This document shows positions 2,266 through 56,160 of a stretch of 64,000 bases of DNA, piece by piece; position 1 is the stretch's first letter, and every line of letters begins with the position of its first letter. This stretch comes from an uncultured cyanobacterium (GTDB lineage Bacteria > Cyanobacteriota > Cyanobacteriia > PCC-9006 > JAAUQQ01), in contig OY970368.1 in the NCBI GenBank assembly GCA_963718615.1, positions 2,880,001 through 2,944,000 of the forward strand, written 5' to 3'. The notes below the pieces were generated by a model. That model saw nothing but the letters and a program-made list of their open reading frames with translations. It had not been told where the DNA came from and made no database searches. The translations under genes were made by a program, and so were the position numbers.

Positions 2266-3473
2266 GACTTTAAGGCCCCAAAATTAGCGGGATCTTGATC
2301 CCGACGGTGGCGGACGGGGATGGCCGGTCCGGGTTGATCCCCCACCAACGCGGCTGTGGTTTCTAGGGCTGCCCGCAGGCGTTTGGCTGCATAGATCGAC
2401 ATATCGCGGGGGACGGAGATGCGATCGCGCAAATACCGCAACCCCAGGTCAGCACCCTCAGGCGGCAAGCAAGCTTCCCCCGTTATCAGATAGGTTAAAG
2501 CCGCCCGCAATGCCGGTTCAAATAAGGCGTCATCCGCTGGATTCACCCGGATCAGATTGGCCCGATGCTTCAGTACGCGGTGCAAGGCCTCCAGGCGGGA
2601 GGTTTCCGGTTCCGGATAGGCCACATCGGGTAGACCGAGCCAGGGACCGGTATCAACCCGCGCTTGATTAATCGCAGTTTGGGGATCCGCGTTGTCGTAG
2701 CATCCGCCCATTTGCGGGGGTAAATCATGGGCATGGGTATGAAAATCGCTTTGGGTGCCTCGGTAGGTGGAGCGACTCTCTAGGCCATCGAACCAAGCCC
2801 CAAGGCGGGGATTCTCCTCTCTGAGGGAATAGCCCTTGTAGTAATACAAACTGGCATTCATCCGCTCGACGTAGGGCGTAAAAATGACATCAACGGTGCC
2901 AAATTCTTCGAGGAAATAGGGTCCTGGTGTTTGGCTCAAGGCCGCTTCTACTTTTTGGACAACGGCGGTGAACTGCTCCCGATTGCGTTGCTCATTGCGT
3001 GCCGAGCCCGCTGGATAGCAAAGCCAACTGCACCAAGCCCGAAACAGCAATCGCTCTAGCTGGCGCAGGGGGAGAACCTGGCGATCGCCCATTCCCTGAT
3101 TCAAAGGTCCAAAGGCCCGTTCCAAGCCAATCAAAATATCATCGCTCTCCGTCATCATGCGGCCATCCAATTCCAGCGCAGGCAGCATTCCCGACGGCAC
3201 CTTGCGCTTATACCAGGATTCCTTTTCCCCATAGCAAAACATCGTCACCTTTTCGATGCGGTAGGGAATTTTTTTTTCCTCTAACCAAAACCAAACCTTT
3301 TGACAATAGGGGCACCAGGCATGGTGATCCCGATAAAGCGTCACCCGCACCGCTGACTCCGGTTGACCAAACAGCCGCAGCTTAGCTTGGGCATTCGTGG
3401 GGCCATTGATTCGGTCAACGGTATAGGGGGCAAGGGCTTCAAGCTCGGACCAGGTCAGGGGGGCAGCGGACAT
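2262..3473 (-). CDS. Glutathione S-transferase family protein
   Basis: WCPYCQKV thioredoxin-like motif, [14 protein letters not shown]. Confidence 0.85.
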
Positions 3474-3651
3474 AAGTAATTCTACAGAGCAGTTTTATAA
3501 AGTTCACGTAAAGTCTAGCGGCCACTCTCCCGACGTTCCACTGCAACTGAGAAAGGAGAGACAAGGTCCGCTGCAAGCAGGTCAAAACACGGTTAACACG
3601 GAACAAGGTCAACACAGGTCAACACAGGTCAACCAGGGGGAATGCAATCCA

Positions 3652-4779
3652 ATGCGGATAGCGATCGTAGGGTGCGGCTTTGTGGCCGATTACTACCTGA
3701 AAACTTTGCCACGCCATCCAAGTTTGGAGTTGGTGGGGGTTATGGACCGAGATCAGAGTCGATCTGAACGTTTTTCTACCTATCATGCCGTTGAATCTTA
3801 TCGCAATTTTGAAGATCTGCTCAACGATCCTCGGGTTGATTTGGTTCTCAATCTCACCAATCCCCACAGCCACTACGAGGTCTCCAAAGCCTGTCTGGAG
3901 GCGGGTAAGCATGTCTATTCGGAAAAACCGCTAGCGACTAATTTTACCGAGGCCAAAGCGCTGGTTGAACTGGCCGAACGTCGGGGGCTTTACCTTTCCT
4001 CTGCTCCCTGCAATCTGCTGAGCGAAACGGCCCAGGGGGTTTGGCGGGCTTTGCAAGAGAAGGTTGTGGGCGAGGTTCGCCTGGTCTATGCGGAAATGGA
4101 TGATGGCATGGTTCACCGCATGCCCTACGACCAGTGGTACAGCGAGTCGGGGATCCCCTGGCCTTTTCAGGATGAATTTGAGGTGGGTTGCACCCTGGAA
4201 CACGCAGCCTATTACATCACTTGGCTGGTGGCCTTCTTTGGCCCAGTGGAAACGGTGACGGCCTTTTCCGACTGCCTGATTCCCGATAAACAACCCCCCC
4301 AACCCTTGACCCGTAACGCTCCAGATTTTTCTGTGGCCTGTCTCAAGTTTCGCTCAGGCGTAGTGGCTCGGCTCACCTGCGGCATAGTTGCCCCCCACGA
4401 CCATCAGCTCCGCATCATTGGGGATACAGGGGTGCTCTCGGTTAAGGATTGTTGGTTCTATCGATCGCCCATCCACATCCAACGCCCGATTACGATTCGT
4501 CGCCGCCAATTCTGGAATCCCTGGAAACAGCGTTATCCCCTGCCCAAGGGCAAATCTCACTTTGGTTATCGGGGCGCTCAGCAAATGGACTTTGCCCGAG
4601 GGGTGGCGGCTCTGGCTACAGCGATTCAGCGCGGTGAGCCGGGGTTGCTCTCGGCCCGCTATTGCCTGCATGTCAATGAAGTGGTTTTGGCGATCCAGGA
4701 TGCAGGGACTGATGGATCGGTCTACCGCGTCACGACCCCCTGCGAGGCAGAGCCGCTGTTGGCCAGTTTGCCGGGATAA
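3652..4779 (+). CDS. Gfo/Idh/MocA family oxidoreductase
   Basis: IAIVGCGFVA Rossmann fold, AGKHVYSEKP motif. Confidence 0.9.
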   Translation: MRIAIVGCGFVADYYLKTLPRHPSLELVGVMDRDQSRSERFSTYHAVESYRNFEDLLNDPRVDLVLNLTNPHSHYEVSKACLEAGKHVYSEKPLATNFTEAKALVELAERRGLYLSSAPCNLLSETAQGVWRALQEKVVGEVRLVYAEMDDGMVHRMPYDQWYSESGIPWPFQDEFEVGCTLEHAAYYITWLVAFFGPVETVTAFSDCLIPDKQPPQPLTRNAPDFSVACLKFRSGVVARLTCGIVAPHDHQLRIIGDTGVLSVKDCWFYRSPIHIQRPITIRRRQFWNPWKQRYPLPKGKSHFGYRGAQQMDFARGVAALATAIQRGEPGLLSARYCLHVNEVVLAIQDAGTDGSVYRVTTPCEAEPLLASLPG

Positions 4780-4798
4780 TCCTGAGGAATTAAGCATT

Positions 4799-5872
4799 AT
4801 GCAACTACTCATAACAGGGGCCTCAGGCTTTTTGGGGCAGGCGGTGGTGATGGAGGCGCTGCGGCGGGGGCATGAAGTCATTGCAGTGAGGCGATCGCCT
4901 GCTGCTGTTTCCTCCACCCTTGCCCCTCTTCCTCCTACCGCTCAAGACCCGTTACTGCGCTCCCCTTTACTGCGCTGGATTGCCGCTGATTTGCGATCGC
5001 CCCAGGCCCTCCAAGCCCTTCAGCCGGATCTGGCCCAAGCCGATGGGGTGATTCACCTAGCCGCTGCCAAATCCGGTTCCTTGGAACAGCAGTGGTTGGA
5101 TACGGTGGGAGGGACGGAGCGGTTGTTGGAGGCGATCGCCCAGCTTTCCCAGCCCCTAGCCGGTCTAGTGGCTATTAGCAGTTTTTCTGTCTATGACTGG
5201 CTGGCGCTACCTACGGGGGCTTGGCTGGATGAAACTTCACCGTTGGAATCCCAGCCTCAGTACCGAGATGTCTATGCCCAGGTCAAGCTGGCCCAGGAAG
5301 CGCGAGTGCAAGCCTTTGCGGCGGCTCATCCCGCGACTGCTGTAACGATTTTGCGTCCGGGAATAATTTTTGACCAGGCGGGACAGGATGGAGCGCAGAA
5401 CTGGAATGCCCACTTGGGGGCGAAGCTAGGACCGCTGTATTTACGCATTGGTCGCGAAGCGACGTTACCGCTGATCGAGGTGGGGCGTTGTGCGGAGGCA
5501 GTGGTCCGGGCGGCGGAACAGGCGTTGCTATCTTCTGTGCTTAATCTGAAGGTTCCGAATCTAAAGGTTTTGAATCTTGTTGATGACGAATTGCCTACCC
5601 AGGCGGAGTATTGGCAGCAATTAAAGCAGCGGGCAAAACATCAGGGCCAGCCGTTGCCCAGAACAATTCCTCTGGCTTGGTCGCTGTTGCAGCCTGTTGC
5701 TGGGTTGGTCTTTGGGATCCAACAGCGCTTGCTTGGGGGGCGGGTGCCACTGCCGGGGATTCTGATTCCGGCTCGAATTGCGGCCCGGTTTAAGCCGCTG
5801 CGCTTTAGCAATGCCCAGGCTAAAGCTGTTGGGTTTCGCTTTGCTCAACGCCAACCTACAGCACCGCATTGA
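4799..5872 (+). CDS. NAD-dependent epimerase/dehydratase
   Basis: ITGASGFLG, VIHLAA, YxxxK (YAQVK), LRPG; true start ATG 4799 within the 4388 ORF. Confidence 0.85.
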   Translation: MQLLITGASGFLGQAVVMEALRRGHEVIAVRRSPAAVSSTLAPLPPTAQDPLLRSPLLRWIAADLRSPQALQALQPDLAQADGVIHLAAAKSGSLEQQWLDTVGGTERLLEAIAQLSQPLAGLVAISSFSVYDWLALPTGAWLDETSPLESQPQYRDVYAQVKLAQEARVQAFAAAHPATAVTILRPGIIFDQAGQDGAQNWNAHLGAKLGPLYLRIGREATLPLIEVGRCAEAVVRAAEQALLSSVLNLKVPNLKVLNLVDDELPTQAEYWQQLKQRAKHQGQPLPRTIPLAWSLLQPVAGLVFGIQQRLLGGRVPLPGILIPARIAARFKPLRFSNAQAKAVGFRFAQRQPTAPH

Positions 5873-5931
5873 TTTGATGCTTTTTTTGATGCTTTTTGCT
5901 GAGCTCAACTGTTTCTACTTTGCAAGGTCCT

Positions 5932-7131
5932 ATGAAAGTTGCCTATTTAACGGGCGAATATCCCCGTGCTACCGATACCTTCATTCAGCGAGAGATTGCG
6001 GTGCTGCGGCAACAGGGGATTGAGGTGACAACCTTTTCGGTGCGACGGACGGGGGATGAGCATCTGGTTGGACCGGAACAGAGAGAGGAGCGATCGCGCA
6101 CCACCTACCTCCTCCCACCCCATCCTGCCAAGCTTCTCTTGGCCCATCTCACGGGCCTGATGCATTCCCCTTCGCAATATCTCAGCGGCCTCCTCCTGGC
6201 CTGGAAAACCGCTCCACCGGGGCTACGCCATCAGCTTTACCAACTGTTTTACTTCCTCGAAGCGGGCTTATTAGCCTGGGAAATTCGGCGGCGAGAGATT
6301 TCCCATCTGCACAATCATTTTGGTTCCTCAAGCTGCACGGTGGCCATGCTAGCGGCGGAGATCGGCGGATTTGGCTATAGCTTCACACTCCATGGCCCCC
6401 ACGTCTTTTTTAACCCAGAGCATTGGCATCTCCGGGAGAAGATTAAGCGAGCAAAATTTGTGAGTTGCATTAGCCACTTTTGCCGTAGTCAGGCGATGTA
6501 TTTTGCCCCCTGGGAAACCTGGGACCGGCTGCACATTGTCCATTGTGGGGTTGACCCGGAGAAGTTTGAGCCAGTGGAGCATCGGCCAGACCAACAACGA
6601 CTGCTCTATACCGGACGACTGGCCCCGGAAAAAGGCTTGCCGATTTTGTTAGAAAGCTTAGTGAAGGTGCGGCAGCAACACCCAGGCGTAGTTCTGACCG
6701 TGGTGGGGGATGGACCGGCGCGATCGCCCCTAGAATCCCTCGTCCATCAGCTTGGCTTACAAAATTGTGTCGAGTTTGTGGGCTATCAATCCCAAGGGGA
6801 GGTCCGGCGCTGGCTAAACCAAACGGCGGTGTTTGTGTTGCCCAGCTTTGCCGAGGGCGTACCGGTGTCGTTGATGGAGGCGATGGCGGCGGGGGTGCCA
6901 GTGGTGACAACGCAGATTGCGGGGGTGAGTGAATTAGTGGAGGACGGGGTAAGTGGTTTTTTGGTGCCGCCGGGGGATGGGGAAAGTTTGGGCGATCGCC
7001 TCTCACAACTATTAACGGATGCGGCATTACGTCAGCAAATGGGAACGGCAGGTCGAGAGAAAGTTGAGGTAGAGTTTAGCGGTGAGGTTGAGGCAAGAAA
7101 ATTAGGAGAGATTTTTAAGAAGTGCGTCTAG
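5932..7131 (+). CDS. Glycosyltransferase family 4 (WcaL-like)
   Basis: YPRATDTFIQRE, GRLAPEKG, EGVPVSLMEAMA; ATG 5932. Confidence 0.9.
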   Translation: MKVAYLTGEYPRATDTFIQREIAVLRQQGIEVTTFSVRRTGDEHLVGPEQREERSRTTYLLPPHPAKLLLAHLTGLMHSPSQYLSGLLLAWKTAPPGLRHQLYQLFYFLEAGLLAWEIRRREISHLHNHFGSSSCTVAMLAAEIGGFGYSFTLHGPHVFFNPEHWHLREKIKRAKFVSCISHFCRSQAMYFAPWETWDRLHIVHCGVDPEKFEPVEHRPDQQRLLYTGRLAPEKGLPILLESLVKVRQQHPGVVLTVVGDGPARSPLESLVHQLGLQNCVEFVGYQSQGEVRRWLNQTAVFVLPSFAEGVPVSLMEAMAAGVPVVTTQIAGVSELVEDGVSGFLVPPGDGESLGDRLSQLLTDAALRQQMGTAGREKVEVEFSGEVEARKLGEIFKKCV

Positions 7132-7182
7132 ATTGTTGTGTAGACCACGTTTTGGGAATGGAAAAACAGGATTTGATTTTGG

Positions 7183-7908
7183 TCAAGCACGATATTCTAG
7201 GCAGATGGCTTCTCTTTGTTGGCTATTTGAGAGATTCTCGATGTCCCGTTTCCGTTTATTCCGCTTCTTCTCCTCGACAGCTTTGGGATATTTGTCAGAC
7301 AAAAGTAGCTTCACGAACTTTTCAACAGAGGAGTTAGAGGTGTTATTCAGTTGCGGGGAAGCGACAGCTAAGTTTACGTTTTTGATGCCTCCTCCTCCAG
7401 CGAGAAACATAGTGAAGGCACTAAAAATACTGAATGCAGCCATAGCTTTCTCGGAAGACTTACAAGCAGACTTCCAGGCTTGAAGTAGGAGAAGCTGCAG
7501 ATAGGCAGACTCTAGAGTTAAAAATGTCGCTGGGCCAAACGAATTTTGTGTAGGAAGAACAGAAGATTCTTGTTGGCGCAGTTTTGAATTGCTAAAGCCA
7601 CTCTTACGGGACAAAGGAATTTGAAAAGTTGATAGTGGCTTAACTTTTAATGAGATTTCTAGAGCTCTATCAATTTGGGAGGTAAGATTCAGTAAATTAT
7701 CTATTATTGTTTCTTCTAAAGGTTCTAGAAAACCAGACAAAAAAATCTGTTCAAACTCACTAGAATAAGAGTCATCCCAATCACTCTTAAGTCTTTTCCA
7801 GGATAAGACGAGAGACTGAAAGTCTTCTTGAAAAAGACTGTTGACACTACTCATCTCTTGATACAAAACTTGTGCTTTTTCTGACTGAAAAGAAACTTGA
7901 TTCGACAT
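7183..7908 (-). CDS. WXG100-like N-terminal domain plus C-terminal extension (putative effector)
   Basis: First ~90 aa helical with W-x6-W-D-D, paralleling the two neighbouring small proteins; C-terminal part has a hydrophobic segment and basic tail. Confidence 0.55.
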   Translation of the reverse strand: MSNQVSFQSEKAQVLYQEMSSVNSLFQEDFQSLVLSWKRLKSDWDDSYSSEFEQIFLSGFLEPLEETIIDNLLNLTSQIDRALEISLKVKPLSTFQIPLSRKSGFSNSKLRQQESSVLPTQNSFGPATFLTLESAYLQLLLLQAWKSACKSSEKAMAAFSIFSAFTMFLAGGGGIKNVNLAVASPQLNNTSNSSVEKFVKLLLSDKYPKAVEEKKRNKRKRDIENLSNSQQREAICLEYRA

Positions 7909-7918
7909 CTTCTATTTT

Positions 7919-8203
7919 TCATCTCCTTAGCTGATTAAGAGTTGATTGTGATTTCTCAACGATGTCTATTTGTTCCCGAATATACTGAAGTTGAGATTCA
8001 ATTTCTCGCTGAGATTCATCAAGTATTGATTGAATTTTTTCAAATTCAATCTCAAATGAATCAAACTGAGGGTCATTCCAGGAATCCTTGAGATTCTCCC
8101 AGGCCGATATCAAGCTGATATAGTCAGATTTCAGTAATTCCTTGAATTTATCGAGTTCTAAAGAAAAGTCTTTTCCTAGATCGAGATTAAATGTAGTTTG
8201 CAT
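7919..8203 (-). CDS. WXG100/ESAT-6-like protein (WxD variant)
   Basis: 94 aa, all-helical, central SAWENLKDSWNDPQFDSF; TAATG overlap with upstream gene. Confidence 0.7.
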   Translation of the reverse strand: MQTTFNLDLGKDFSLELDKFKELLKSDYISLISAWENLKDSWNDPQFDSFEIEFEKIQSILDESQREIESQLQYIREQIDIVEKSQSTLNQLRR

Positions 8204-8478
8204 TAGCGATTCCCTTCAAATTCTTCTACGATTTCCTTGTAGTCACTAATAAAATTAACTGATTCCTCTAGTGCTTTATTCGCATCTTTACTGTTGAACA
8301 ATACTTCTTCAAATTGAGGCGAAAAATTATCTTTAGCAGTCCCTTTCCAGGTAGAGCTACAGTATTGCCAAGAATTTTGTAGAGAGTTAAGCCGATCGCT
8401 TAGCTTCTCTCGAAATAACTCTAGCTCCGAATGGAAATTCATGAGTTTATCTACATCTACATCAATGTTATTGCTCAT
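8203..8478 (-). CDS. WXG100/ESAT-6 family protein
   Basis: 91 aa, N-terminal IDVDVDKL, central STWKGTAKDNF (W-x-G), helix-turn-helix pattern. Confidence 0.85.
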   Translation of the reverse strand: MSNNIDVDVDKLMNFHSELELFREKLSDRLNSLQNSWQYCSSTWKGTAKDNFSPQFEEVLFNSKDANKALEESVNFISDYKEIVEEFEGNR

Positions 8479-8480
8479 GA

Positions 8481-11400
8481 TTAATTTTGCTCCTGAACTC
8501 GTTTTTGGAATTTTTGGGCGTAGGATTGAAGCTCTTTCGCCAGTGGGACAGCATAGGGCTTAAGTTTTTCTGGTGCATCTACAGTGCTGTAGTCCTTAAA
8601 GTATGCCCTGATAGGCGGTAGTTTCTGCGCATAGGATTCACCAATCAAAGATTTTGAGTCCTCGCCAGACATACTGAGGATAGTTCGCATATCAAATTGG
8701 GCGAGTAAGGATTTGGGTTTGTCGGTAGTCAGACTCGTAATGCTCTTGAGCTCGTCAAACCAGAGAGTTGTGTGAATACCAAGCTCAGGCCCTTCTGTGA
8801 CAAGTTGCAGAAGGGCCTGGGCATCTTCAGACATTTCTTCGTTGCGTTTTCCCATAAGGGGACGAAGGTTGCTGGCTCTGTTGAGACTACCAATAGCGTA
8901 AATAACGAATAGGGAAGGTCCAAACTTATAAGCGTCGGGATCAGCATCACGGATAGTTTTACGGCGTTCAAATTCTTTCCAGATAGTTTGGAGCAGAGTT
9001 TCTGCCTGCACTATTTGTTGGGTCCGGTTTGCTTGCCGCTTGGCGATAAAGGTTGGAAAATATTGACCGAAAGCTTTGCGAAAATAGAGTGAAAAATAAG
9101 TCCAGGGTTTTTCATCGTCATTTTGGGAAAGGTCGATGATGCAGAAGCGAGCCTTTTGGGGTTGGTAGCTATGAACGAGACTAATAAGTATTCCACCGAG
9201 GATGCCGTAGATGGTCTCCTCTGATCTGCCGACGAGGAGCATATTACTTCTGGGACGGCGGCGGAATATGGCCTGGGTATGGTTGCCAATGCGCATGGCT
9301 TCGCCAAGCCATGCCACACCGGGAACATCTTCAACGTCCCAGTCTTCCAGTTTGAGCAGGTGTTTATTGAGATCTTTAGCACACAGCCAACGATTTTGGC
9401 GGGTGAGGGCAACGAGTTGGTGGTTTTGGGAGAGTTTGGTGGGTCTGGAGCCGTTAAAAACGACGAGGGGGGCAGGGCGGAGATATTCCCGCCCTTTTGC
9501 AATTTCTTGAATTCTGATTAGGGCTGCGCGACGAGCAGCTTCGGAAGCATCGGCCACTTGGCCCAGTTCGTTGTAAGCTTTGCGACCAAAGTCGCGGTTG
9601 TAGATAATGCGACCTGGACGATCGAGTAATTCTACAGCATCCACATTGTTTTCATCTAGGATAGCTCCAGCGGTGCGCTGATCCATTTGCTGGGCCATAC
9701 GAAGTTCAATGAAGGAGTAAATACTGCTGCTGATATTAGTGACACGAGGGGATTGGGAGGCGAGGAGCATATGAACTCCAAAGGCGCGTCCGCGTCGGGC
9801 AATGTCTTCAATGATAAGATTGAGTTCTTTTGTAATACTGTCGTTCTCTTGGAACATGTACTGAAATTCATCGATAACAACAAGAATGCGAGGCATATAC
9901 TGATTCGTTTGTTCTCGATATTCTGAGAGTTTTGCAACTCCAACTTTTTTAAATAATTGACCTCGTTGTTCAATTTTTCGTTGAACATGTTGAAGAATAC
10001 TGAGGCCAAACTCTCGATCGCTTTCAATAGAAATAACTTTGGCGTGAGGAAGTGCCTGGCTATCATTCAATTCTGTATTGAAATTTGTGGTCTGGGAACG
10101 AGTCGGGTCAATATAAACTTGAAACTCGACTCCCTCTTTAAAGTCGAGAAGGTAAAGTTCGAGTTCTAACGGTGAATAGCGAAGAGCAAGGCTGTTGATA
10201 ATGGCGTGGAGCGTATAGCTTTTGCCTGCTCCAGGTTTTCCAGCTAGTAGAGCTTGGCTAATCACGATATCATCTTGATTCGTCCCAAGCCAGAAGTCAA
10301 GGCTGTCCATTGCACCCATGATACCAATAGGAGCACGGATTTCATGCCTACTATCGTATGTCCAAGCTCGGAAGGGTTCAGGATAAAGCTCGTTAAAAGG
10401 AACAGTTTCCACCTTTACACTGCGAAATTCATCACCCAGTTTTTTAATAACAGCATTTATGATTTCTTTGTCGGGAGCTTGGTCTAAAGAGACTTCTAAA
10501 ACTGTATCTCGGGCTATGGAATATGAAAAGGATGGTCGTTTTCCAATAACTTTATTAGTTGGGGTCAGAACAGTGCAGTATTGTTCTATTTTCCCTCGAT
10601 TGATATTTCTAGGCCATTCTGCATCTTGGCTAACATGGAGTACAACAGATATACTGGCCCGATGTCCATTTTCAAGAATTGCAATGAGATCTTCAAATGC
10701 TCGATTATTAAAGCCCGTAGGAAAATCAGAGATAAATAAATAATGAAAGGCTTCTGCCGCAAATGGTTTCGCCTGATTAAACTCTTCTAGAGAGGAAAAG
10801 TCTGATCCTAAATATTTTTGAACAACTTGCTCAATGTGATTTGCCAGATTACGTAATTGATCCTGAATTTCATCAGATCTAGTGTAGACTTTAGGCCCTA
10901 ATACAAAGTGCGGGAGTCCCTTGAACGGAAAACTATTGCCCATCGAGATTGGATCAATAAATATGCATTTTAAGAAGCGTGGAGGAGAAAGCGTTAAAGA
11001 TCTGAGTGCCAGAGCTTGTAAATAGCTTATCGCGCAGTTTCTTTCTACAAAGTTTTTACTTTTAATTAAAAGATTGGGTATCCTTATAAAGTCAATACTG
11101 GTATTTCCAGTGTGATTGGCAGGTGACACAAACGCTGGCAATAAAACACGAGCATTGCATTCAATATCATAAAAATTCTCGATTTGTCCTAAGTACAGAA
11201 ATTTAAGCTCATCAAAGGAGAGATTTTCACTATGAGAGACTGCTGTTGGTGACAGGAAAAAAGCATAAGGATCTTTATGATTCTGGCTTAAGGATGACGA
11301 ATAGTATTTTTCATGAACAAATCTAATATTTTCAAGTGCACCAGAAGTCTTTGATAAACTTTCTATGCTGTTTTGATAGAGAAATGAGCGGATAGATATT

Positions 11401-11536
11401 TCATCTATAAAAATGGTCTTTAAGTGTGAGTGAATTGATCGATTGACATCGGCTATTCTACGCCCAACAAAATCGATCTGTTCTTTCTTTTTCTGCCATT
11501 CTATAAAATTTCTTTTGCTCCTGATGAAAAAATCCC
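8481..11536 (-). pseudogene. FtsK/SpoIIIE-family (EssC/EccC-like) ATPase, 5'-truncated by IS1
   Basis: Walker A GKPGAGKS, LYLLDFKEG, Walker B VVIDEFQ, GRAFGVHMLLASQ, flanked by two degenerate ATPase-like domains. The frame stays open ~130 codons upstream of 11141 with no ATG/GTG/TTG, up to the IS1 end at 11537. Confidence 0.8.
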
Positions 11537-11612
11537 GGTAGTGCCTTTAGCTGGGGGATGAGTATGGTGTGGCCATTAGAGAAAGAAAAAGCAAACTGGG
11601 TAAGACCCTTCT

Positions 11613-11936
11613 GTGCCAATTGCGATGACTCAAGAGCTGCTTCATTGTCCTAACTGTCTATCTGAAGATATCAGCCGTAACGGCTTCAACGATCGCGGTA
11701 CTCAAAGCTATAAATGTCGAGATTGCCATCGCCGGTTTGTCCTGACTCCGAAATCCCTTCCCTTGAGCGATGAAGAGATAGCCTTGCTCGAACGTTTATT
11801 GCTTGAAAGGCTAGCCATCGCTGGAATTGCTCGGGTGATGCAGCGCTCCGAGAGCTGCATTCAGACCTACGTCAACGCCAAAGCTAAAACCGTTGCTCGG
11901 GAGGTGGAAGTGACGAAGAAAGTAAAAAAGCTCTGA
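11613..11936 (+). CDS. insA: IS1 InsA (Zn-ribbon + HTH)
   Basis: CPNC..YKCRDCHRRF, IAGIARV HTH; ends at slippery A6G. Confidence 0.85.
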   Translation: MPIAMTQELLHCPNCLSEDISRNGFNDRGTQSYKCRDCHRRFVLTPKSLPLSDEEIALLERLLLERLAIAGIARVMQRSESCIQTYVNAKAKTVAREVEVTKKVKKL

Positions 11937-11944
11937 CGGTCCAG

Positions 11945-12385
11945 ATGGACGAACTCTGGTCGTTCGTGGACCATAAAGGAAATAAACAGTGGGTTTGGAT
12001 TGCTCTAGATGCGGACACTCGCGAAATCATTGGCCTTTATATCGGGGACCGAAGTGCTAAATCTGCCGAAGCTTTATGGCGGTCTCTACCGGGAGTGTAC
12101 CGCCAATGTGCAGTCATCTACACCGATTATTGGGAGAGCTATGCCTGTGTGCTTCCTAGCCAACGCCACCGAGCGGTTGGGAAAGAAAGCGGGCTGACGA
12201 GCTACATCGAGAGGTTCAACTGCACCCTGCGGCAAAGGGTGTCGCGCTTGGTCCGAAAGGCGCTCTCGTTTTCAAAGAAACAAGAGAACCACGAGGCTGC
12301 GATCTGGAATTTCGTTCACCATTACAACCAGCAATTGCGCCTTAAGCAGGCTCATACCGCTTCATTCTCTCCAGCACCCACATAA
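11945..12385 (+). CDS. insB: IS1 InsB DDE domain, fused to InsA by -1 frameshift
   Basis: DELWSFV, YTDYWESY, IERFNCTLRQR. Confidence 0.9.
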   Translation: MDELWSFVDHKGNKQWVWIALDADTREIIGLYIGDRSAKSAEALWRSLPGVYRQCAVIYTDYWESYACVLPSQRHRAVGKESGLTSYIERFNCTLRQRVSRLVRKALSFSKKQENHEAAIWNFVHHYNQQLRLKQAHTASFSPAPT

Positions 12386-12395
12386 TTGGACTACC

Positions 12396-12966
12396 GATTC
12401 ACGACCAGTTGCGAGAAGAGCTACGACAGCTGGATGGACGAGAGCCTCAATCAAGCGTAGCGATTGCCGATTCTCAATCCGTCAAAACGACGGAAAAAAG
12501 GGGGTGGTCTACGGCTTCGATGGGGGCAAGCTTGTCAAGGGTCGCAAACGTCATATCCTCGTTGATTCCCAAGGATTGCTCATCGGGCTGCTTGTGAGTG
12601 AGGGGAATGCATCCGAGCGCCTTGGAGCGATTATTGTTGCTTACCAAGCGCGGGAGAAGCTGACTCGTACCAAGATTGTTTGGGCTGACCAAGGCTATAC
12701 AGGGGAGAAATTTGCTGAGGCTATCAAGCAGATTTGTGGAGCGACGGTAGAGATAGTCAAGCGCACCTCGAAGGAGTTTGAGCAACTCCCTCATCGTTGG
12801 ATTGTAGAGAGGAGTTTTGGGTGGCTCAATCGCTATCGTCGGATGAGCAAAGACTATGAATTACATACGGAATTTAGTGAGGGCATGATCTACGGCGCTT
12901 TCATCCGCTTGATGTTGCGTCGCTTTGATAATTCCGCATCTTAAGCTTTTACTTATAAATTAGCTC
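12396..12966 (+). mobile_element. IS5-family (IS1031-like) element, left part deleted
   Basis: Begins mid-transposase (IHDQLREE..DSQSVKTTEK), A6G5 frameshift, GRKRHILVD, WADQGY, RWIVERSFGWL. Right end ACTTATAAATTAGCTC followed by TAA. Confidence 0.8.
12504..12944 (+). pseudogene. IS5-family transposase C-terminal ORF
   Basis: DDE motifs as above; the upstream ORF lacks its 5' end. Confidence 0.8.
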
Positions 12967-13235: not shown

Positions 13236-13739
13236 TCATGCATCGTATTTCGCCACCCGCAACCAGGCATCCTGGGCCGCCGGACGCACATCATCCCAAC
13301 CCATAGAGCGCTTACCATAGCGTGTTTCATAATTGCTGCGTAAATGAGGCTCGGCTTCCTCATAGGTCAGGCCCTGGGGGGCATAGGTCGAATAACCTTC
13401 ATACCCGGTACGGTAGGCCGGAGAATAGTCGTCATAGGTCTGCCCTTTTTTGTAGTAGGGGCGCGACGTATAGGTCTCTTTCCAGTGGGCTTCTTCTACC
13501 GTGGGGTCAACTTTTTCCGCAACCCCTTTACCGGCAAGGCCCCCGGCAACCCCGCCAACCACTGCCCCTACGACAGCGCCGACCGGGCCTCCTACCGCAC
13601 CCCCGATGACAGTTGCCGCAGCGCCCACTCCAGCGGCTCCAACCCCTGTGCCAACGGGATGAGCCCCATGCTCTTGAGTAATCGGATCTTCGTTGTAATC
13701 GACTTCTTCCCGAACAATTTTCTTATGCTGGTCTGCCAT
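13236..13739 (-). CDS. Hypothetical protein with glycine zipper
   Basis: HPVGTGVGAAG..GGVAGGLAGKG followed by Tyr-rich domain ending AAQDAW. Confidence 0.75.
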   Translation of the reverse strand: MADQHKKIVREEVDYNEDPITQEHGAHPVGTGVGAAGVGAAATVIGGAVGGPVGAVVGAVVGGVAGGLAGKGVAEKVDPTVEEAHWKETYTSRPYYKKGQTYDDYSPAYRTGYEGYSTYAPQGLTYEEAEPHLRSNYETRYGKRSMGWDDVRPAAQDAWLRVAKYDA

Positions 13740-48352: not shown

Positions 48353-50995
48353 ATGGGACGTTGCCTCAGTCTCCTGTTTTGCTTATTGTACAGTTTAAGC
48401 AACGGCCTCGTGCTGGCGACTGAGGAGCCCTCTGAGCACTCCAAGGATCAGCCCTCTGAGCAGCCCTCTGAGCAGCCCACGAAGCGCTTCTCCAACGCCC
48501 TGCTGCAAAACGGCATCCAGCGCTATCAAGCCGGACAGACTCAAGCGGCAATTGATATGTGGAAACAGGCCCTTGCAGAAACGGCACAACCCTATCAGCA
48601 GGCTCTGCTGCTCAATTACCTAGCGTTGGCCTATCAACAGCTTGGACAAGTCCAACAAGCCCAGAGCGCTTTAATCCATGCGAAAACCCTGCTCGACGGT
48701 GAGCTCGACGGTGAATTGCCCCACGGCTTCGATCAACATCAAACGGCCTCTATTCAATCCCGTCTTCTCAATACCCAAGGTCGATTATATTGGTCGCAAG
48801 GTCAGATTGAGTTGGCTCAAGCGACCTGGCAAGCTGCCCAGGAGGCCTATGGCATCGCTGAAGATCCGGAAGGTCAACTGCTAGCAACACTCAACCGAGC
48901 GCAGGCGTTGATGGCCTTGGGATTTAATCACCAAGCAGAGGTTCAACTGAGCCAGAGCTATCAGCAATTACAACGTTATGCCCCCGATAACCCTAATCTG
49001 AGCGCCACAGGACTGCAATTGCTGGGCATCGTCTTGCGGCAGGTGGGTCAGCCTCAGCGATCGCAACAGATCCTGCAAGAAAGTCTCAGCATCACGCCCC
49101 CTACAGCAGTAAATCAGCAGGCTAAAACCCTTTTGGAACTGGGGAATGGCGAACAGGTTTTAGGCACTCGCTTGAAAACCCTGGGGAAACGGACAGACTC
49201 GCAAGCAGCGACACAGCAAGCTTTACAGTTTTATCAGCAAGCGGAAACCCTCGCAACGGAGCCGCTGGTGCAATGGCAAAGTCGATTAAATCGGCTGGCG
49301 CTCCTCGTGGATACGGATAATTCGCAGGCGATCGCGATCGCCTCCACCCTCCAAACCCAGCTCCCAGCCTTTCTCGCAACCCAGCCTCCCAGCCATGCAA
49401 CGGTCCAAGCCCAGCTCAATTTGGCAGACCGCCTCATTGACCTCGGACAAAATCCGGAGCCTCTCATTCAATCCACCCTGATTCAAGCCAAAACCCTAGC
49501 GGATTCCACAGCAATTTCCTATGCCCTTGGGCAGCGGGGCGCTTGGTTGGAGCAGCAACAGCAATGGGCTCAGGCTCAATATTGGACAGAGCAAGCCCTG
49601 GTAACACTTGATCCAGTCCAAGTGCCGAGTTTACGATATCGCTGGGAGTGGCAGCTCGGGCGGTTGCTGCGACAGCAACGGAATCTACCGGGGGCGATCG
49701 CCGCCTACCAAGACGCGGTCACTAGTCTCGAAGCGGTGCGGGGAGATTTGCTGTCTATTAATCCAGAACTCCAATTTTCCTTTCGAGATGATGTAGAACC
49801 AGTCTATCGTGAGTTGGTGGGTCTACTACTCGACGAGTCCAAGGCCAAGGACGGTGCTCCCAGCCAGTCCGTGCTTAAGCAAGCCATTCAGCAGGTTGAC
49901 GCATTGCAGCTCGCAGAATTGGAGAATTTTCTAGGTTGCAAACTGGCTCGAACCGTAGCGCTCGGAGCGGTTACCGCTGATCCAAAGGCGGCTAAGCTTT
50001 ACCCCTTGATTCTGGACGATCGCCTAGCCATTATCCTTGAACCCCCCGGACAACAACCGTTGCAGTACCATGAAATTCGTGTAGAACGCCTGATAGTGCA
50101 GCAGCAACTACAACAGCTTCGGCAAGATTTGGCGGCACCGGGACGGACACCAGAGGCGATCGCAGGACTCACCACCGTCTACCAATGGCTCATCCAACCC
50201 TTTGAAGCCCAACTGACAGCCCAGAATGCCGAAACCTTGGTGTTTGTCTTGGATGGGGATCTGCGCAATATCCCCATGGCGGCCCTCTATGACGGTGAGG
50301 ATTATTTAATTAGTCGCTATGCCGTGGCCCTGTCACCTCGATTGCAGTTGTTTGATCCGAGACAGCGATCGCGCAATCTGTCGGTATTTCTCGGGGGCGT
50401 TGGTAAGCCTCAGGATTTGGCTGGGCGGAGTTTTCCGGCGATCGCCAACCTAGAACCCGAATTAGACGGTATCCGCGATCTCTTTTCCACTCCTCAACCT
50501 TTACTCAACGAATCTTTCACCAAACCTCAGCTCACTCAATCGTTATCCAGTCAATCCTTTTCAGCCATTCATCTCAAAACCCACGGCATCTTTAGCTCAG
50601 ACCCTGAAGAAACCTTTGTGGTCGCCTATGAAGGCTTGCTCACGGGGCAAGAGCTAGGGCAGTTGCTGCGGGGACGAGAAACCAAAGCAGGAACGCTCAG
50701 TCCAGTGGAACTCCTGGTATTGAGCGCCTGTTCTACGGCCCAGGGCGATAATCGGGCGGTCTTAGGAATGGCCGGATTGGCTGTCCAAGCGGGGGCGCAG
50801 AGTGTAGTTTCGACATTATGGGAAGCGCAGGATGTGCCAAATACAGCGTTGATGCTGCGCTTTTATGAGGCGTTGAAAAATCCAGCGGTGAGTCGGGCGG
50901 AGGCGTTGCGATCGGCACAGTTGTCGTTGCTGGAAGAGGGCTATACAACGCCCCATGTTTGGGCAACCTACGTGTTGGTGGGCAATTGGCTATAA
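48353..50995 (+). CDS. Exported TPR-CHAT (caspase-like) protein
   Basis: Signal peptide, TPRs, HLKTHG and LSAC catalytic motifs, C-terminal WATYVLVGNWL. Confidence 0.9.
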   Translation: MGRCLSLLFCLLYSLSNGLVLATEEPSEHSKDQPSEQPSEQPTKRFSNALLQNGIQRYQAGQTQAAIDMWKQALAETAQPYQQALLLNYLALAYQQLGQVQQAQSALIHAKTLLDGELDGELPHGFDQHQTASIQSRLLNTQGRLYWSQGQIELAQATWQAAQEAYGIAEDPEGQLLATLNRAQALMALGFNHQAEVQLSQSYQQLQRYAPDNPNLSATGLQLLGIVLRQVGQPQRSQQILQESLSITPPTAVNQQAKTLLELGNGEQVLGTRLKTLGKRTDSQAATQQALQFYQQAETLATEPLVQWQSRLNRLALLVDTDNSQAIAIASTLQTQLPAFLATQPPSHATVQAQLNLADRLIDLGQNPEPLIQSTLIQAKTLADSTAISYALGQRGAWLEQQQQWAQAQYWTEQALVTLDPVQVPSLRYRWEWQLGRLLRQQRNLPGAIAAYQDAVTSLEAVRGDLLSINPELQFSFRDDVEPVYRELVGLLLDESKAKDGAPSQSVLKQAIQQVDALQLAELENFLGCKLARTVALGAVTADPKAAKLYPLILDDRLAIILEPPGQQPLQYHEIRVERLIVQQQLQQLRQDLAAPGRTPEAIAGLTTVYQWLIQPFEAQLTAQNAETLVFVLDGDLRNIPMAALYDGEDYLISRYAVALSPRLQLFDPRQRSRNLSVFLGGVGKPQDLAGRSFPAIANLEPELDGIRDLFSTPQPLLNESFTKPQLTQSLSSQSFSAIHLKTHGIFSSDPEETFVVAYEGLLTGQELGQLLRGRETKAGTLSPVELLVLSACSTAQGDNRAVLGMAGLAVQAGAQSVVSTLWEAQDVPNTALMLRFYEALKNPAVSRAEALRSAQLSLLEEGYTTPHVWATYVLVGNWL

Positions 50996-51609: not shown

Positions 51610-52776
51610 ATGGGAACTAAAGTTCTTGGACCTAATGACTACAATTTTTCAGCATCTAAAGAGTGGGATTACTTTCCTTATCCCAGCAAAGTCTGGAAAC
51701 CTTGGACAATTACTGGCAATGCTCGCAATAACACGCTAACGGGAGGTGAAAAAAACGACACGATTTTTGGAGGATTGGGTGACGATACCATCTTTGGTTT
51801 AGCAGGAAATGATTTGCTTTTTGGTCAAGCCGGTGACGATCGCCTATACGGGGGCAGCGGGGATGACTCGCTCTCTGGTTCGGATGGCAATGATGTGCTT
51901 GAAGGAGGAGCAGGCAACGATTATATGGATGGGGGCTCTGGCAACGACTACTATTACGTTGATTCTTTCAATGACAAAATCATTGAACTCAGCGGTTTTG
52001 GTCTCGACACCGTTGAAACCAGCCTGAGTGGCTATAACCTAGCGGCTAATGTCGAGAATTTGGTTGTTTCGCCGTTCTCCAATGGTGGAAGCTTTTTCGG
52101 CAACTATCTCGCTAACACAATGTATGGCAACGCTACTGGCAATGAACTCTACGGTATGGATGGCAATGATACTATCTTTGGCCGGGGAGGAAACGATATC
52201 CTAATTGGCGGTGCTGGCAGTGATGTTCTCTATGGCGATGACGGCAATGATCTCTTGTATGGATCTTACGATGCAGACCAGCTCTATGGAGGCGCTGGTC
52301 ATGATGTGCTGTACGGTGGCGGTGGCAATGACTACCTCGTTGCGGGGACAGGGACCGACGTTCTCTTGGGTGAGTCCGGCAATGATACTCTGGTCGGATC
52401 TGAAGGCTCAGGCTCCGCGATGCTCAATGGCTCTGCCACCGTCGCAAGCAATTACTTTGATCCGGGAGAGTTCGATACACTGATCGGTGGCATCGGATAC
52501 GATACGTTTGTTCTTGGTGGAACTTGGGGTGTTTCCTACTTTGAGAGTGGCGATGGCTATGCCACGATCCAAAACTTTGATTATTCCAGAGACAAAATCC
52601 AGGTAAAAGGAGGCTTGGGCACCTACAGTTTAGAGTTTAAGGAACTCGGCGGCGTTGGCTCTAGTGCGAAGGATACGGAGATCTACTTTACGAGCAGCAA
52701 TGGCGTAAAAGACCGGATTGGTATTGTTCAGGACACGACCAATATCAGCATCAACCGTGACTTTTTGTTTGTTTAG
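51610..52776 (+). CDS. RTX/hemolysin-type Ca-binding protein
   Basis: Many GGxGxDxLx repeats; AGGAG RBS. Confidence 0.9.
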   Translation: MGTKVLGPNDYNFSASKEWDYFPYPSKVWKPWTITGNARNNTLTGGEKNDTIFGGLGDDTIFGLAGNDLLFGQAGDDRLYGGSGDDSLSGSDGNDVLEGGAGNDYMDGGSGNDYYYVDSFNDKIIELSGFGLDTVETSLSGYNLAANVENLVVSPFSNGGSFFGNYLANTMYGNATGNELYGMDGNDTIFGRGGNDILIGGAGSDVLYGDDGNDLLYGSYDADQLYGGAGHDVLYGGGGNDYLVAGTGTDVLLGESGNDTLVGSEGSGSAMLNGSATVASNYFDPGEFDTLIGGIGYDTFVLGGTWGVSYFESGDGYATIQNFDYSRDKIQVKGGLGTYSLEFKELGGVGSSAKDTEIYFTSSNGVKDRIGIVQDTTNISINRDFLFV

Positions 52777-52866
52777 TTTGTAGTCGGTAGTCAGGGTGTC
52801 TAGAATGAGTGCAGGATGGGATTTTCCCATCCTGTTTCTTCGGCTTGTTGTTTGGGGAGATTCAAA

Positions 52867-55800: not shown

Positions 55801-56160
55801 AACGTAGATCCCACCCGAGGCATTAGCCAACTCCCCAGCACCGTCAGCAGCACCCAACCCAGCCAAGGCTGCCAAACCGCTAGCACCGGCCAAGCCACCT
55901 CAGCCGAATTCTTCACCACCGGACGCGGTGGCCTTCCCCCCAGTCCCAGCGATGCCCTCAGCAGCAACACCATTCTCGACGACCTACGTGTGCCATCCGA
56001 GTTCGCGGTGACAGAAGTAATTCCGACCGCTGCCTCCACTTCACGCCCCATTACCGAAGCCACCCACTGGGAAATCAACGCCCAAGGCAAAGTTATGCTT
56101 GCGGCTCAAACGGCTGCTCCAGCAAAAGTTAATCACTGCAAGTTGCTCAGTCAAGATTGA
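52867..56160 (+). CDS. Filamentous haemagglutinin-family (TpsA-like) exoprotein
   Basis: Signal peptide, NLFHSF, INPSGIIFG TPS motif, ~60-aa GxGGNIxI..GAQL..AGNI repeats, TGRGGLPPSP C-terminus; start 52867 or 52894. Confidence 0.9.
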   Translation: MIRDRTSIHMTQKVLKSLLSGLLAGTEICLGAPVTAQNITLDGSLGPVRDLGNGPVYEIQQADGTTVGENLFHSFGQFNLSVGEKASFQSTPTIQNILTRVTGGSTSSIDGLIFTESPAVNFFLINPSGIIFGPNAQLDIGGTTRGDFTATTLDALVWSDDNRFDAVNPDGAEALLKIVGDPSGFLGSQRRMAEIALEGSFLQVYKNQDLRFLGGGINVDGALLIAPSGRVGLGSTNNLGTVSINQNGSFQFTDQFERGDVQFNNGALVDVTSEDKGDIQVIGKDINVLEGSILRAGIARNLGTDFSQAGDIKVDATGTVSVTGNFSQVVNDVRTGASGKGGNIEIIARNLIVQGNGSRLSTILFGTGVAGNVQIKTRDLVLLQGSTNGQFPVGITSSVETLGEGKGGNVIIETSELKVIDTAQIDASTNGQGDAGNIFINARDQVLFKDNSTAFSLVGKDGEGKGGGITINTGALEVRDGSQLVASTLGVGNAGNIFINTIDSTEPMKTGHVLFQNGDAFSNVGETGSGSGGNIVINTTELEVRNGAQLIASTEGIGNAGNILINARDFVIFEGRTIDGRFGSDAFSSVEKTGIGKGGDIVINTNILEVKNGAQLTAETKGQGNAGNIKLIVRDRVLFEGSNTAALSNVNSIGNGNGGDIIIVTGTLEILRGAQLIATTQGEGDAGNISLAVRDRLRIEGTDPIQGFSSGILTSNANPNPSKSIRSGGDISITTPQLQITNGAVIDSRTVNDGPGGDITLNVDDLTLIDGGQLLSTSDGSGPAGTVRINATNALRITGSDPIYTDRRAQFGSAVASISANSGIYVRSTDTGAAGQVIIGDPNLGTLPRLLLLDDGEIVADSNAVTGGDISLNLAQSLVMRNNSLISATAGRSEGGGDGGNITISVPFVLSLPDENSDIIANAFSGTGGNITINADAILNFSLNEDKKSFEQLRQQSTNDISASSQFGSNGTLNLAGLNVDPTRGISQLPSTVSSTQPSQGCQTASTGQATSAEFFTTGRGGLPPSPSDALSSNTILDDLRVPSEFAVTEVIPTAASTSRPITEATHWEINAQGKVMLAAQTAAPAKVNHCKLLSQD

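Follow-up and report, generated by a model that had tools for sequence, protein, structure and literature searches.

The 64-kb window studied here (the whole stretch of DNA that was analysed, part of contig OY970368.1 of an uncultured cyanobacterium) carries a set of four adjacent genes on its minus strand, at positions 7183-11546. The set includes the reading frame of a large FtsK-family ATPase and three genes for smaller proteins of 91, 94 and 241 amino acids (aa), which are named WXG1, WXG2 and the 241-aa protein below. All coordinates are positions in this window, and the features are collected in Table 1. [quoted passage not shown]

Table 1. Features of the ATPase-WXG module and of the adjoining insertion sequences in the window
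Feature	Position	Strand	Basis
ATPase gene, 5'-truncated, EccC/EssC-like, FtsK family	8481..11535	-	PF01580 101 bits; 47% identity to P0034
ATPase domain 1 (aa 158-400), P-loop-like fold without Walker A	10347..11075	-	AlphaFold2 model, sequence
ATPase domain 2 (aa 401-690), sole live motor domain	9477..10346	-	Walker A 10218-10241, Walker B VVIDE 9867-9881
ATPase domain 3 (aa 695-1020), degenerate, P-loop-like	8487..9464	-	AlphaFold2 model, sequence, Foldseek
WXG1, 91 aa, W44-K-G, canonical WXG100	8203..8478	-	PF06013 36 bits
WXG2, 94 aa, W42-N-D, WXG100-superfamily paralogue	7919..8203	-	hhalign, profile A4
241-aa protein, W44-D-D hairpin plus tail	7183..7908	-	AlphaFold2, Foldseek, P0123 collinearity
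IS1-family insertion sequence	11536..12396	+	transpos_IS1 match, terminal inverted repeats
IS5-family transposase, C-terminal fragment	12504..12944	+	profile positions 119-258 of 258

The genes are tightly packed. The stop of the ATPase frame lies at 8481 and the start of WXG1 at 8478, with an intergenic gap of 2 nucleotides (nt); the end of WXG1 and the start of WXG2 coincide at 8203, an overlap of 1 nt; and 10 nt lie between the end of WXG2 at 7919 and the start of the 241-aa gene at 7908. A first-pass annotation, made from the sequence alone, had described four co-oriented genes with gaps of 2, -1 and 10 nt, and both the coordinates and the strand were verified here. The motifs that it had read in the ATPase (GKPGAGKS and VVIDEFQ) and in the small proteins (WKG, WND and WDD) are likewise all present by translation. 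In addition, the module is a low-GC island, with a GC content of 0.412 against 0.539 in the left flank and 0.543 in the right flank. Because of this difference, a foreign origin of the module is indicated.

The stop-to-stop frame of the ATPase (8481-11546) has 1021 codons. The Pfam family FtsK_SpoIIIE matches its residues 431-645 with 101 bits (cut-off 24). By translation, the Walker A motif GKPGAGKS occupies residues 436-443 and the string RILVVIDEFQ residues 553-562, with the Walker B motif at 556-560. An AlphaFold2 (AF2) model was built from an alignment of 114 relatives and has a mean pLDDT of 87.3 and a pTM of 0.82. In this model, a long N-terminal helix (residues 2-83) and a poorly ordered stretch precede three alpha/beta domains at about residues 158-400, 400-690 and 695-1020. 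The order of the domains is degenerate-active-degenerate, and the Walker A and B motifs are kept in the middle domain only. For instance, the loop from strand 1 to helix 1 of domain 1, which is the P-loop position, reads SKN, and in domain 3 the P-loop and Walker B positions are occupied by VGRSEETIYG and FVIYAIGS, respectively. Furthermore, G436, G441, K442, D559 and E560 are invariant across the 114 aligned sequences, and exactly one [AG]xxxxGK[ST] motif is found in 112 of these 114 family members.

Three kinds of comparison rank EccC and EssC first among the relatives of this ATPase. Among the NCBIfam models, EssC scored 87 bits, EccCa 79 and EccCb 75, against 31 for HerA and 27 for FtsK (the cut-off of the FtsK equivalog is 1566). 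In the sequence search of the PDB, the best matches were EccC of T. curvata (4nh0, 64 bits), EccC5 (52 bits) and YukB (46 bits), followed at lower ranks by FtsK (38 bits), TcpA (26 bits) and HerA (23 bits); the matches of the live domain fall on the D1 regions of EccC (4nh0, 7np7) and YukB. The Foldseek search with the AF2 model found the cytoplasmic domain of EccC with its three ATPases (4nh0, E 1e-32, 980 columns), then the D2-D3 regions of EccC and EssC (about 1e-20 to 1e-23), the FtsK motor (3e-14) and TcpA (3e-12). Since these rankings agree, the ATPase stands apart from its conjugative and DNA-translocating relatives, and its assignment as EccC/EssC-like is supported over that as a DNA-translocating FtsK, a coupling protein or HerA. 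Both the T7SS-like nature of the ATPase and its composition of one intact and two degenerate ATPase-like domains, which had been read from the letters before, are thus upheld. Meanwhile, all of the closest ATPase relatives whose source is named are cyanobacterial, for example from Nostoc, Lyngbya sp. PCC 8106, Arthrospira platensis, Cyanobacterium aponinum, Geminocystis herdmanii and [Leptolyngbya] sp. PCC 7376.

The three small proteins carry their tryptophan motifs at similar positions, namely WKG at residue 44 of WXG1, WND at residue 42 of WXG2 and WDD at residue 44 of the 241-aa protein. WXG1 matched the Pfam family WXG100 (PF06013) with 36 bits, above the cut-off of 27.3, and TIGR03930 with 37.7 bits, under its cut-off of 44.85. 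No Pfam family at E<=0.01 matched WXG2 or the 241-aa protein above its cut-off. We used a profile of the WXG1 family (A3, 20 sequences) and a profile of the WXG2 family (A4) in further comparisons. The best solved structure for A3 was HP0062 of Helicobacter pylori (3fx7, 2gts; E 1e-14, 57 bits), followed by EsxB and EsxA. The best PDB matches of A4 were EsxA of S. aureus (E 2e-4) and HP0062 (E 5e-4). In addition, the two families matched each other in hhalign at 96.4%.

The 241-aa protein is longer and needs a closer description. In phmmer, its matches were the third genes of cyanobacterial loci and proteins of about 70 aa from planctomycete loci. Its AF2 model contains two helices (residues 9-44 and 47-88; block-mean pLDDT 74-93) that meet at a turn where W-D-D is placed. 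The other parts are modelled with low confidence, except for the last 40 residues or so, which form a helix rich in Lys, Arg and Glu (pLDDT 83-93); the tail also has a hydrophobic, Gly-rich segment at about residues 155-175 ahead of this Lys/Arg/Glu-rich end. The top Foldseek matches were EsxA and EsxB, with TM scores of 0.69-0.77 on the target and rmsd of 2.2-3.0 Å, at E values of 0.5-1 that are not significant. A word-indexed homologue search found the protein itself only (1 of 503 candidates), and an ESM Atlas search with residues 96-241 gave no usable match. The exhaustive HMMER search returned two relatives besides the protein itself. One of them, P0123 (also 241 aa), is collinear over residues 1-233, with an identity of 35% by phmmer and 30% by BLASTP, and both proteins have the hairpin, the hydrophobic Gly-rich segment and a KRKR-rich tail. 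Because P0123 is collinear and has the same parts, the 241-aa gene is probably full-length. We also searched with profile A4 for longer proteins with a WxD domain, and 1 match among 7996 candidates was obtained, a search too weak to speak on toxin fusions.

Altogether, the family profiles, hhalign and the AF2 model support the view that the three small proteins are all members of the WXG100 superfamily and fold as helical hairpins, as far as prediction shows. The hairpin fold and the likeness to HP0062 had been put forward in the first-pass annotation, and the profile searches proved the latter comparison apt. The family searches that it had recommended gave matches above the cut-offs for PF01580 (ATPase) as well as for PF06013. 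Docking of domain 3 of the ATPase (residues 690-1021) with WXG1 and WXG2 gave a score of 0.01 against a mark of 0.32, in a run without controls that counts neither for nor against an interaction.

To place the module among its relatives, a profile scan was done with one genome per species. Of the 384 relatives that it detected, the best 80 were retained as loci L001-L080. These best 80 of 384 include 4 cyanobacterial loci (50-55% identity), 1 locus of Chloroflexota (42%) and 75 loci with about 30% identity, most of which belong to Planctomycetota and Verrucomicrobiota. We scored an ATPase as linked if A3 or A4 at E<1e-3 detected a WXG-like open reading frame (ORF) within 4 kb (<=4 kb) on the same strand. 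After exclusion of L023, L057 and L074, in which the ATPase fell in another cluster, 78 sources were counted (77 loci and the window), and the ATPase was linked to WXG genes in 67 of them. In nine of the 11 misses, the contig stops on the side on which the WXG genes would lie, and the other two (L008 and L073) were true misses. The linkage of the ATPase to WXG genes, whose absence would have counted against the earlier reading, is consistent across the related loci.

The gene order of the window, that is the ATPase, two WXG genes and a longer WXG-type protein (184-214 aa there), is repeated in L001, L002 and L004. The Chloroflexota locus L005 also has two WXG genes, and the ORFs after them are one of 146 aa outside the WXG cluster and then one of 79 aa with W-H-G. 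The order in Planctomycetota and Verrucomicrobiota is a WXG protein (90 aa), a helical protein of about 200 aa (c1), a WxD protein of about 70 aa (c2) and an ATPase of about 1300 aa. The c2 proteins matched the WXG2 family in hhalign at 90.8%. The c1 proteins resembled none of the families compared with them, and an assignment of c1 as WXG-like was unsupported (hhalign <3%). Thus, all three helical partners are of WXG type in cyanobacteria, and two of the three in Planctomycetota and Verrucomicrobiota. The set that recurs in the relatives is limited to the ATPase, the WXG-like genes and either an anchor or one to two small helical proteins, and beyond this set no gene cluster was common to more than 7 loci.

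Some of these loci have further genes or domains. An Imm33-like domain (PF24719) lies at the C terminus of c1 in L009, L010, L017, L041, L047, L059 and L077 (for example L010:7064-8143). L001 (8254-10618) and L002 (14151-16583) share a downstream pair, which encodes an ankyrin-repeat/ARC6-like IMS (periplasmic) protein and a beta-lactamase-family protein. These may be accessory or immunity genes, and the pair is absent from the window.

The module also occurs on plasmids. A Deinococcus plasmid has the cyanobacterial gene order beside transposases, and it is the one among 657 plasmid records that covers at least 80% of the query; no cyanobacterial plasmid was among the matches listed. A more distant ATPase (823 aa, 26.5% identity over residues 175-645) is encoded on a plasmid of Helicobacter sp. 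(NZ_AP024820.1, L082). Its operon (2761-7163) encodes, in this order, a WXG-like protein of 89 aa, a protein of 340 aa with a WHH/HNH nuclease at its end, an immunity protein of the SUKH (SMI1/KNR4) type, a 77-aa protein and the ATPase. The 89-aa protein matched the planctomycete WXG family in hhalign at 98%. This operon gives the best support by context for an export reading, as its genes are arranged like those of an exported polymorphic toxin. A WXG- or LXG-like N-terminus of the nuclease was unsupported (hhalign <40%). In addition, a pair of MazF toxin-antitoxin type lies near the operon on this plasmid.

To describe the membrane anchoring, we took as a hydrophobic segment a stretch of 19 aa with a Kyte-Doolittle value >=1.7. 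Such segments lie ahead of the ATPase domains in 55 of the 62 long ATPases of Planctomycetota and Verrucomicrobiota, usually two of them at about residues 200-290, and the ATPase of Chloroflexota likewise has N-terminal hydrophobic segments. Among 110 database homologues, mostly cyanobacterial, 32 have hydrophobic segments (median length 1207 aa). In L002, L003 and L004, a gene for a protein of about 200 aa lies directly upstream of an anchor-less ATPase. We regard this protein as in effect a split-off anchor, because its N-terminus is a coiled coil and its C-terminal part has two hydrophobic helices. Thus, the relatives are shown to be membrane-anchored, as judged from predicted helices, in one of two ways: by two fused transmembrane (TM) helices, or by a separate coiled-coil protein of about 200 aa with two TM helices encoded upstream.

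Meanwhile, the ATPase of the window has no hydrophobic 19-aa segment, and so it does not show the T7SS feature of a TM-anchored ATPase. Seven N-terminal regions and four ORFs from upstream positions, of which three encode two-helix anchors and one a multi-span protein of L005, served as tblastn queries. They found no anchor gene or N-terminal remnant in the 64-kb window outside the ATPase frame; the best other match had an E of 0.015. The first-pass annotation had suggested that membrane genes of the EssA/EssB/EsaA type may have been deleted from the locus. This was not borne out, since the recurring set of the relatives is without such genes and no EssB/YukD/EccB-type family occurred among the Pfam-scanned neighbours. 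More broadly, no FHA, EssA/EssB/EsaA/YukD or EccB/EccD/EccE/MycP was found by Pfam in the window proteins or in the neighbours in L001-L005, L039, L081 and L082. What the window copy misses is the 5' part of its ATPase gene, together with the gene for a two-helix anchor that lies upstream in 3 of the 4 cyanobacterial relatives.

The likely cause of this loss lies at the border of the module. A seemingly complete IS1-family element, with an InsA-like frame at 11613-11936 and an InsB-like frame at 11945-12385, adjoins the point where the ATPase homology begins. Its 25-nt imperfect terminal inverted repeats (11536-11560 and 12372-12396) are 72% complementary; they were found with a laxer inverted-repeat scan, and a scan with seed 9 and a minimum of 14 nt missed them. 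The homology of the ATPase to P0034 (1018 aa, 47% identity) starts at nt 11534, where query residue 5 corresponds to residue 24 of P0034. Thus, the first 3-4 codons of the 1021-codon frame are sequence of the IS1 end, and about 23 N-terminal codons are missing in comparison with P0034. No ATG, GTG or TTG occurs before codon 136 of the frame. The gene had been described as having more than 1000 codons; this is right for the open frame, and wrong for the gene as such, as the frame runs from stop to stop, has no start before codon 136 and begins with codons of IS1. Because IS1 abuts the start of the homology and an early start codon is lacking, we conclude that the ATPase gene is now without its start and about 23 codons, and that the promoter region and the upstream neighbour have gone as well. 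In the public protein set, P0001 is an 820-aa 'FtsK' version (8481-10943), whose internal methionine start lies inside the first degenerate domain, and the gene is better annotated as 5'-truncated than as P0001. Beyond IS1 there is only a stretch for the C-terminal 140 residues of an IS5-family transposase, unrelated to the module, so that the border is a nest of insertion sequences. No second copy of the IS1 or the IS5 element was found in the window by blastn. Judged from the sequence, the window copy is probably inactive.

For the family as a whole, the most economical reading would follow EccC/EssC. By this analogy, we infer an ATPase-dependent export of WXG proteins. The membrane-anchored ATPase would form a ring at the cytoplasmic membrane, its live middle domain would drive the export of folded WXG-type dimers, and the degenerate flanking domains would serve as scaffold or receptor. 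The longer third protein may be a cargo or effector. In a diderm, the proteins would be delivered to the periplasm unless some unknown outer-membrane step exists. In the window, IS1 would have taken away the start codon with about 23 codons of the N-terminus, the promoter region and all that lay upstream, including any anchor gene.

It is possible, with a little less than an even chance in our view, that the module is a distinct class of type-VII-like export across diderm phyla, with a one-live-site ATPase, a fused or split anchor and three fixed partners, of which the longer one is an exchangeable cargo. These partners would be an HP0062-like WXG protein, a short WxD protein and a longer protein with a variable tail. 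The suggestion of an exchangeable cargo comes from the Helicobacter plasmid, which holds a nuclease toxin and an immunity gene at the equivalent position. The cyanobacterial machine would deliver effectors to the periplasm, which is continuous along filaments, or on to neighbouring cells.

However, several results weigh against an export module and against an inactive remnant. The scores of the T7SS models in NCBIfam are far under their cut-offs (TIGR03928 EssC, 87 vs 778 bits; TIGR03924 EccCa, 79 vs 509 bits; TIGR03925 EccCb, 75 vs about 347 bits). The EssC and EccC families are thus the best-matching ones at the level of a single domain only, and the curated family score for a T7SS ATPase is not reached. 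No N-terminal hydrophobic segment is present in 78 of the 110 database homologues (median 1060 aa), and L001 has a TPR gene at the position of the upstream anchor gene. The conserved c1 of Planctomycetota and Verrucomicrobiota, about 200 aa long, is without detectable similarity to the WXG family. Eleven long forms of c1 were found and 10 of them were Pfam-scanned; in 7 of these 10, the Imm33-like domain matched at E<=0.01, and 5 of the 7 matches exceeded the cut-off. Imm33 is an immunity family of polymorphic toxins. Some cyanobacterial or metagenomic homologues have additional domains: an S1 (RNA-binding) insert between domain 1 and the live domain in P0007, P0011 and P0099, a fragment of Hsp70 inserted at the same place in P0082 and P0107, and an N-terminal caspase with HATPase_c_4 in P0063. 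A secretion motor does not usually have such additions, which are more characteristic of conflict systems in the cytoplasm. We had considered the S1 domains as N-terminal fusions that replace the anchor, and this was rejected, as the S1 domains sit inside the protein, between domain 1 and the active domain. In addition, an outer-membrane component is not evident, and a 2023 review (PMC10765036) describes the Gram-negative loci of such systems as functionally unconfirmed. Finally, no stop interrupts the frame of the window ATPase over its 1021 codons, and the three small genes seem to be whole. Therefore, the insertion may be recent, or expression may continue from the insertion sequence.

Part of these results could be explained if the module were an intracellular or membrane-associated conflict system (anti-phage or abortive infection), in which the ATPase would sense or translocate a part of the invader and the WXG-like proteins would be effectors or regulators in the producer cell. 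We consider this unlikely, and keep it as the main rival because of the anchor-less ATPases, which include most of the cyanobacterial ones as far as a fused anchor is concerned, the S1, Hsp70 and caspase additions, the Imm33-like domain, the PADLOC matches and the lack of an outer-membrane component. The low-GC island flanked by insertion sequences and the plasmid relatives beside transposases also fit it. On the active domain of the ATPase, the PADLOC model mad8 scored 65 bits (residues 432-640), SspH 54 (432-600) and HerA <=32. However, these matches span the generic P-loop domain only; the small proteins had no PADLOC match, and the partner genes of MADS, Ssp and HerA systems are not present. 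T7SS ATPases outscore the defence and HerA models, and the two TM helices in 55 of the 62 long forms also count against this rival. WXG100 proteins are known only as substrates or components of T7SS, as is established (see also PMC10765036). Furthermore, the nuclease toxin with a SUKH immunity gene in Helicobacter is the signature of an exported polymorphic toxin (cf. Zhang et al. 2012, PMC3482391).

Another explanation holds that the window copy is still functional, with an outward promoter of IS1, a non-canonical or internal start and a soluble ATPase, the anchor being possibly encoded elsewhere in the genome. The uninterrupted frame, the three apparently intact small genes (the last one collinear with P0123) and the many cyanobacterial relatives that are naturally anchor-less agree with it. 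We nevertheless regard it as quite improbable, considering that no start codon lies within the first 135 codons, that the N-terminal codons present in P0034 are missing, and that every tblastn match to an anchor-like gene in the window had E>=0.015. The last explanation, that the ATPase is a DNA pump (an FtsK/SpoIIIE translocase or the conjugative coupling protein of a degraded mobile element) with the small genes as passengers, has in its favour the Pfam family name, the source annotation of relatives as 'DNA segregation ATPase FtsK/SpoIIIE' and the insertion sequences alongside, and we judge it very improbable, as FtsK, TcpA and HerA rank under EccC/EssC in sequence and fold, two of the three P-loop domains are dead, 67 of 78 sources show the linkage to WXG genes, the FtsK gamma family is absent from the Pfam output for the ATPase, and no gene for a relaxase or for type IV secretion turned up in the part of the window that was scanned.

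The surroundings of the module in the window include other genes of exporters and of putative exported proteins. The chromosome can be recognised as cyanobacterial, with DevBCA-type exporter genes and a DUF928/CHASE2-CHAT/DUF1822 cluster. A TPR-CHAT protein is encoded at 48353-50995 (+), and the DUF928 / CHAT-CHASE2 / DUF1822 cluster lies at 57096-61664 (-). Between them (51610-56160, +), a gene for a 388-aa protein with RTX calcium-binding repeats precedes one for a protein of 1114 aa that has a TPS (two-partner secretion) domain, and the two form another putative exported-protein locus. Nearer to the module (13236-13739, -), there is a gene for a 167-aa protein with a hydrophobic stretch rich in Gly, Ala and Val at about residues 30-70. 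Its match to an RTX N-terminal domain is sub-threshold (24 bits vs the cut-off of 26.8), and no relationship to the anchor proteins of the related loci was found.

The T7SS has been defined by an ATPase of EccC/EssC type that is bound to the membrane, together with a WXG100 protein (Garrett et al. 2024, PMC11217815). WXG100 proteins were reported to be nearly confined to Actinobacteria and Firmicutes, with few in Chloroflexi (Poulsen et al. [quoted passage not shown] The survey of T7SSa-j by Garrett et al. (2024) contains no occurrence of cyanobacteri-, planctomycet-, chloroflex-, verrucomicrob- or diderm. If the export reading is true, cyanobacteria, Planctomycetota and Verrucomicrobiota would own a dedicated export route that this text leaves unmentioned. 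For the diderm kind, PMC10765036 cites Sutcliffe 2011 and Unnikrishnan et al. 2017. Our full-text literature searches found no experimental work on the module in cyanobacteria, Planctomycetota or Verrucomicrobiota.

The module differs from the other systems with related ATPases. FtsK/SpoIIIE, TcpA and TraD/VirD4 share the common P-loop motor fold with it; they are single-domain, lower-scoring matches, whereas the module is WXG-linked and has no gamma domain, relaxase or type IV secretion context. The ATPases of MADS (mad8), SspH, HerA-Sir2 and HerA-DUF4297 match in the active domain only, and the module is without their partner genes.

EccC and EssC have three nucleotide-binding domains plus a DUF domain. 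With T7SSa (EccC with EsxA/EsxB, Actinomycetota) and T7SSb (EssC/YukB with EsxA, Bacillota), the module shares a multi-domain FtsK-family ATPase, for which they give the best match in sequence and fold, the partners with a WXG100 hairpin, and, in the relatives of the window ATPase, two TM helices before the ATPase domains. However, the window ATPase has one live site in three domains of P-loop fold and no FHA domains, and the hosts are diderms. In addition, EssA/EssB/EsaA/YukD or EccB/D/E/MycP are not among the neighbours scanned, and the scores are far under the equivalog cut-offs. Helicobacter is linked to the module by HP0062, the best solved-structure match of the WXG1 family profile. The Helicobacter plasmid locus is different, with a shorter ATPase (823 aa), WXG genes upstream, and the WHH nuclease and SUKH genes inside the operon.

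The closest known kind is that listed by Zhang et al. 2012 (Biol Direct 7:18, PMC3482391). According to footnote 6 of their Table 1, solo WXG genes lie beside a three-domain ATPase with "only the middle one active". The footnote describes a YueA/EssC-like ATPase with HerA/FtsK domains in cyanobacteria, planctomycetes and verrucomicrobia as a 'Mobile version of T7SS'. Since the kind is listed there for cyanobacteria, the locus is not a new discovery in this phylum. The module shares with this kind the three-domain ATPase with an active middle domain (by the AF2 model and the single Walker A in 112 of 114 relatives), the solo WXG-domain proteins beside the ATPase (linked in 67 of 78 sources), the same host phyla and the mobile look (low GC, a flank of IS1 and IS5, plasmid-borne relatives). 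Thus, the kind is already known and uncharacterised, and the window adds one damaged member. T7SS research has been confined to Actinomycetota and Bacillota, and the diderm-type module has stood in a table footnote since 2012. The class merits experiment, for which the window copy is a poor subject, being a foreign island probably disabled by IS1. Its comparative anatomy offers handles for a functional test, namely the one live site, the fused or split anchor, the three partners and the nuclease/immunity pair. Our comparison goes beyond that footnote in describing which three helical partners recur, how the two-helix anchor is either fused or split, a toxin/immunity pair as an example, and the truncation of this copy by IS1.

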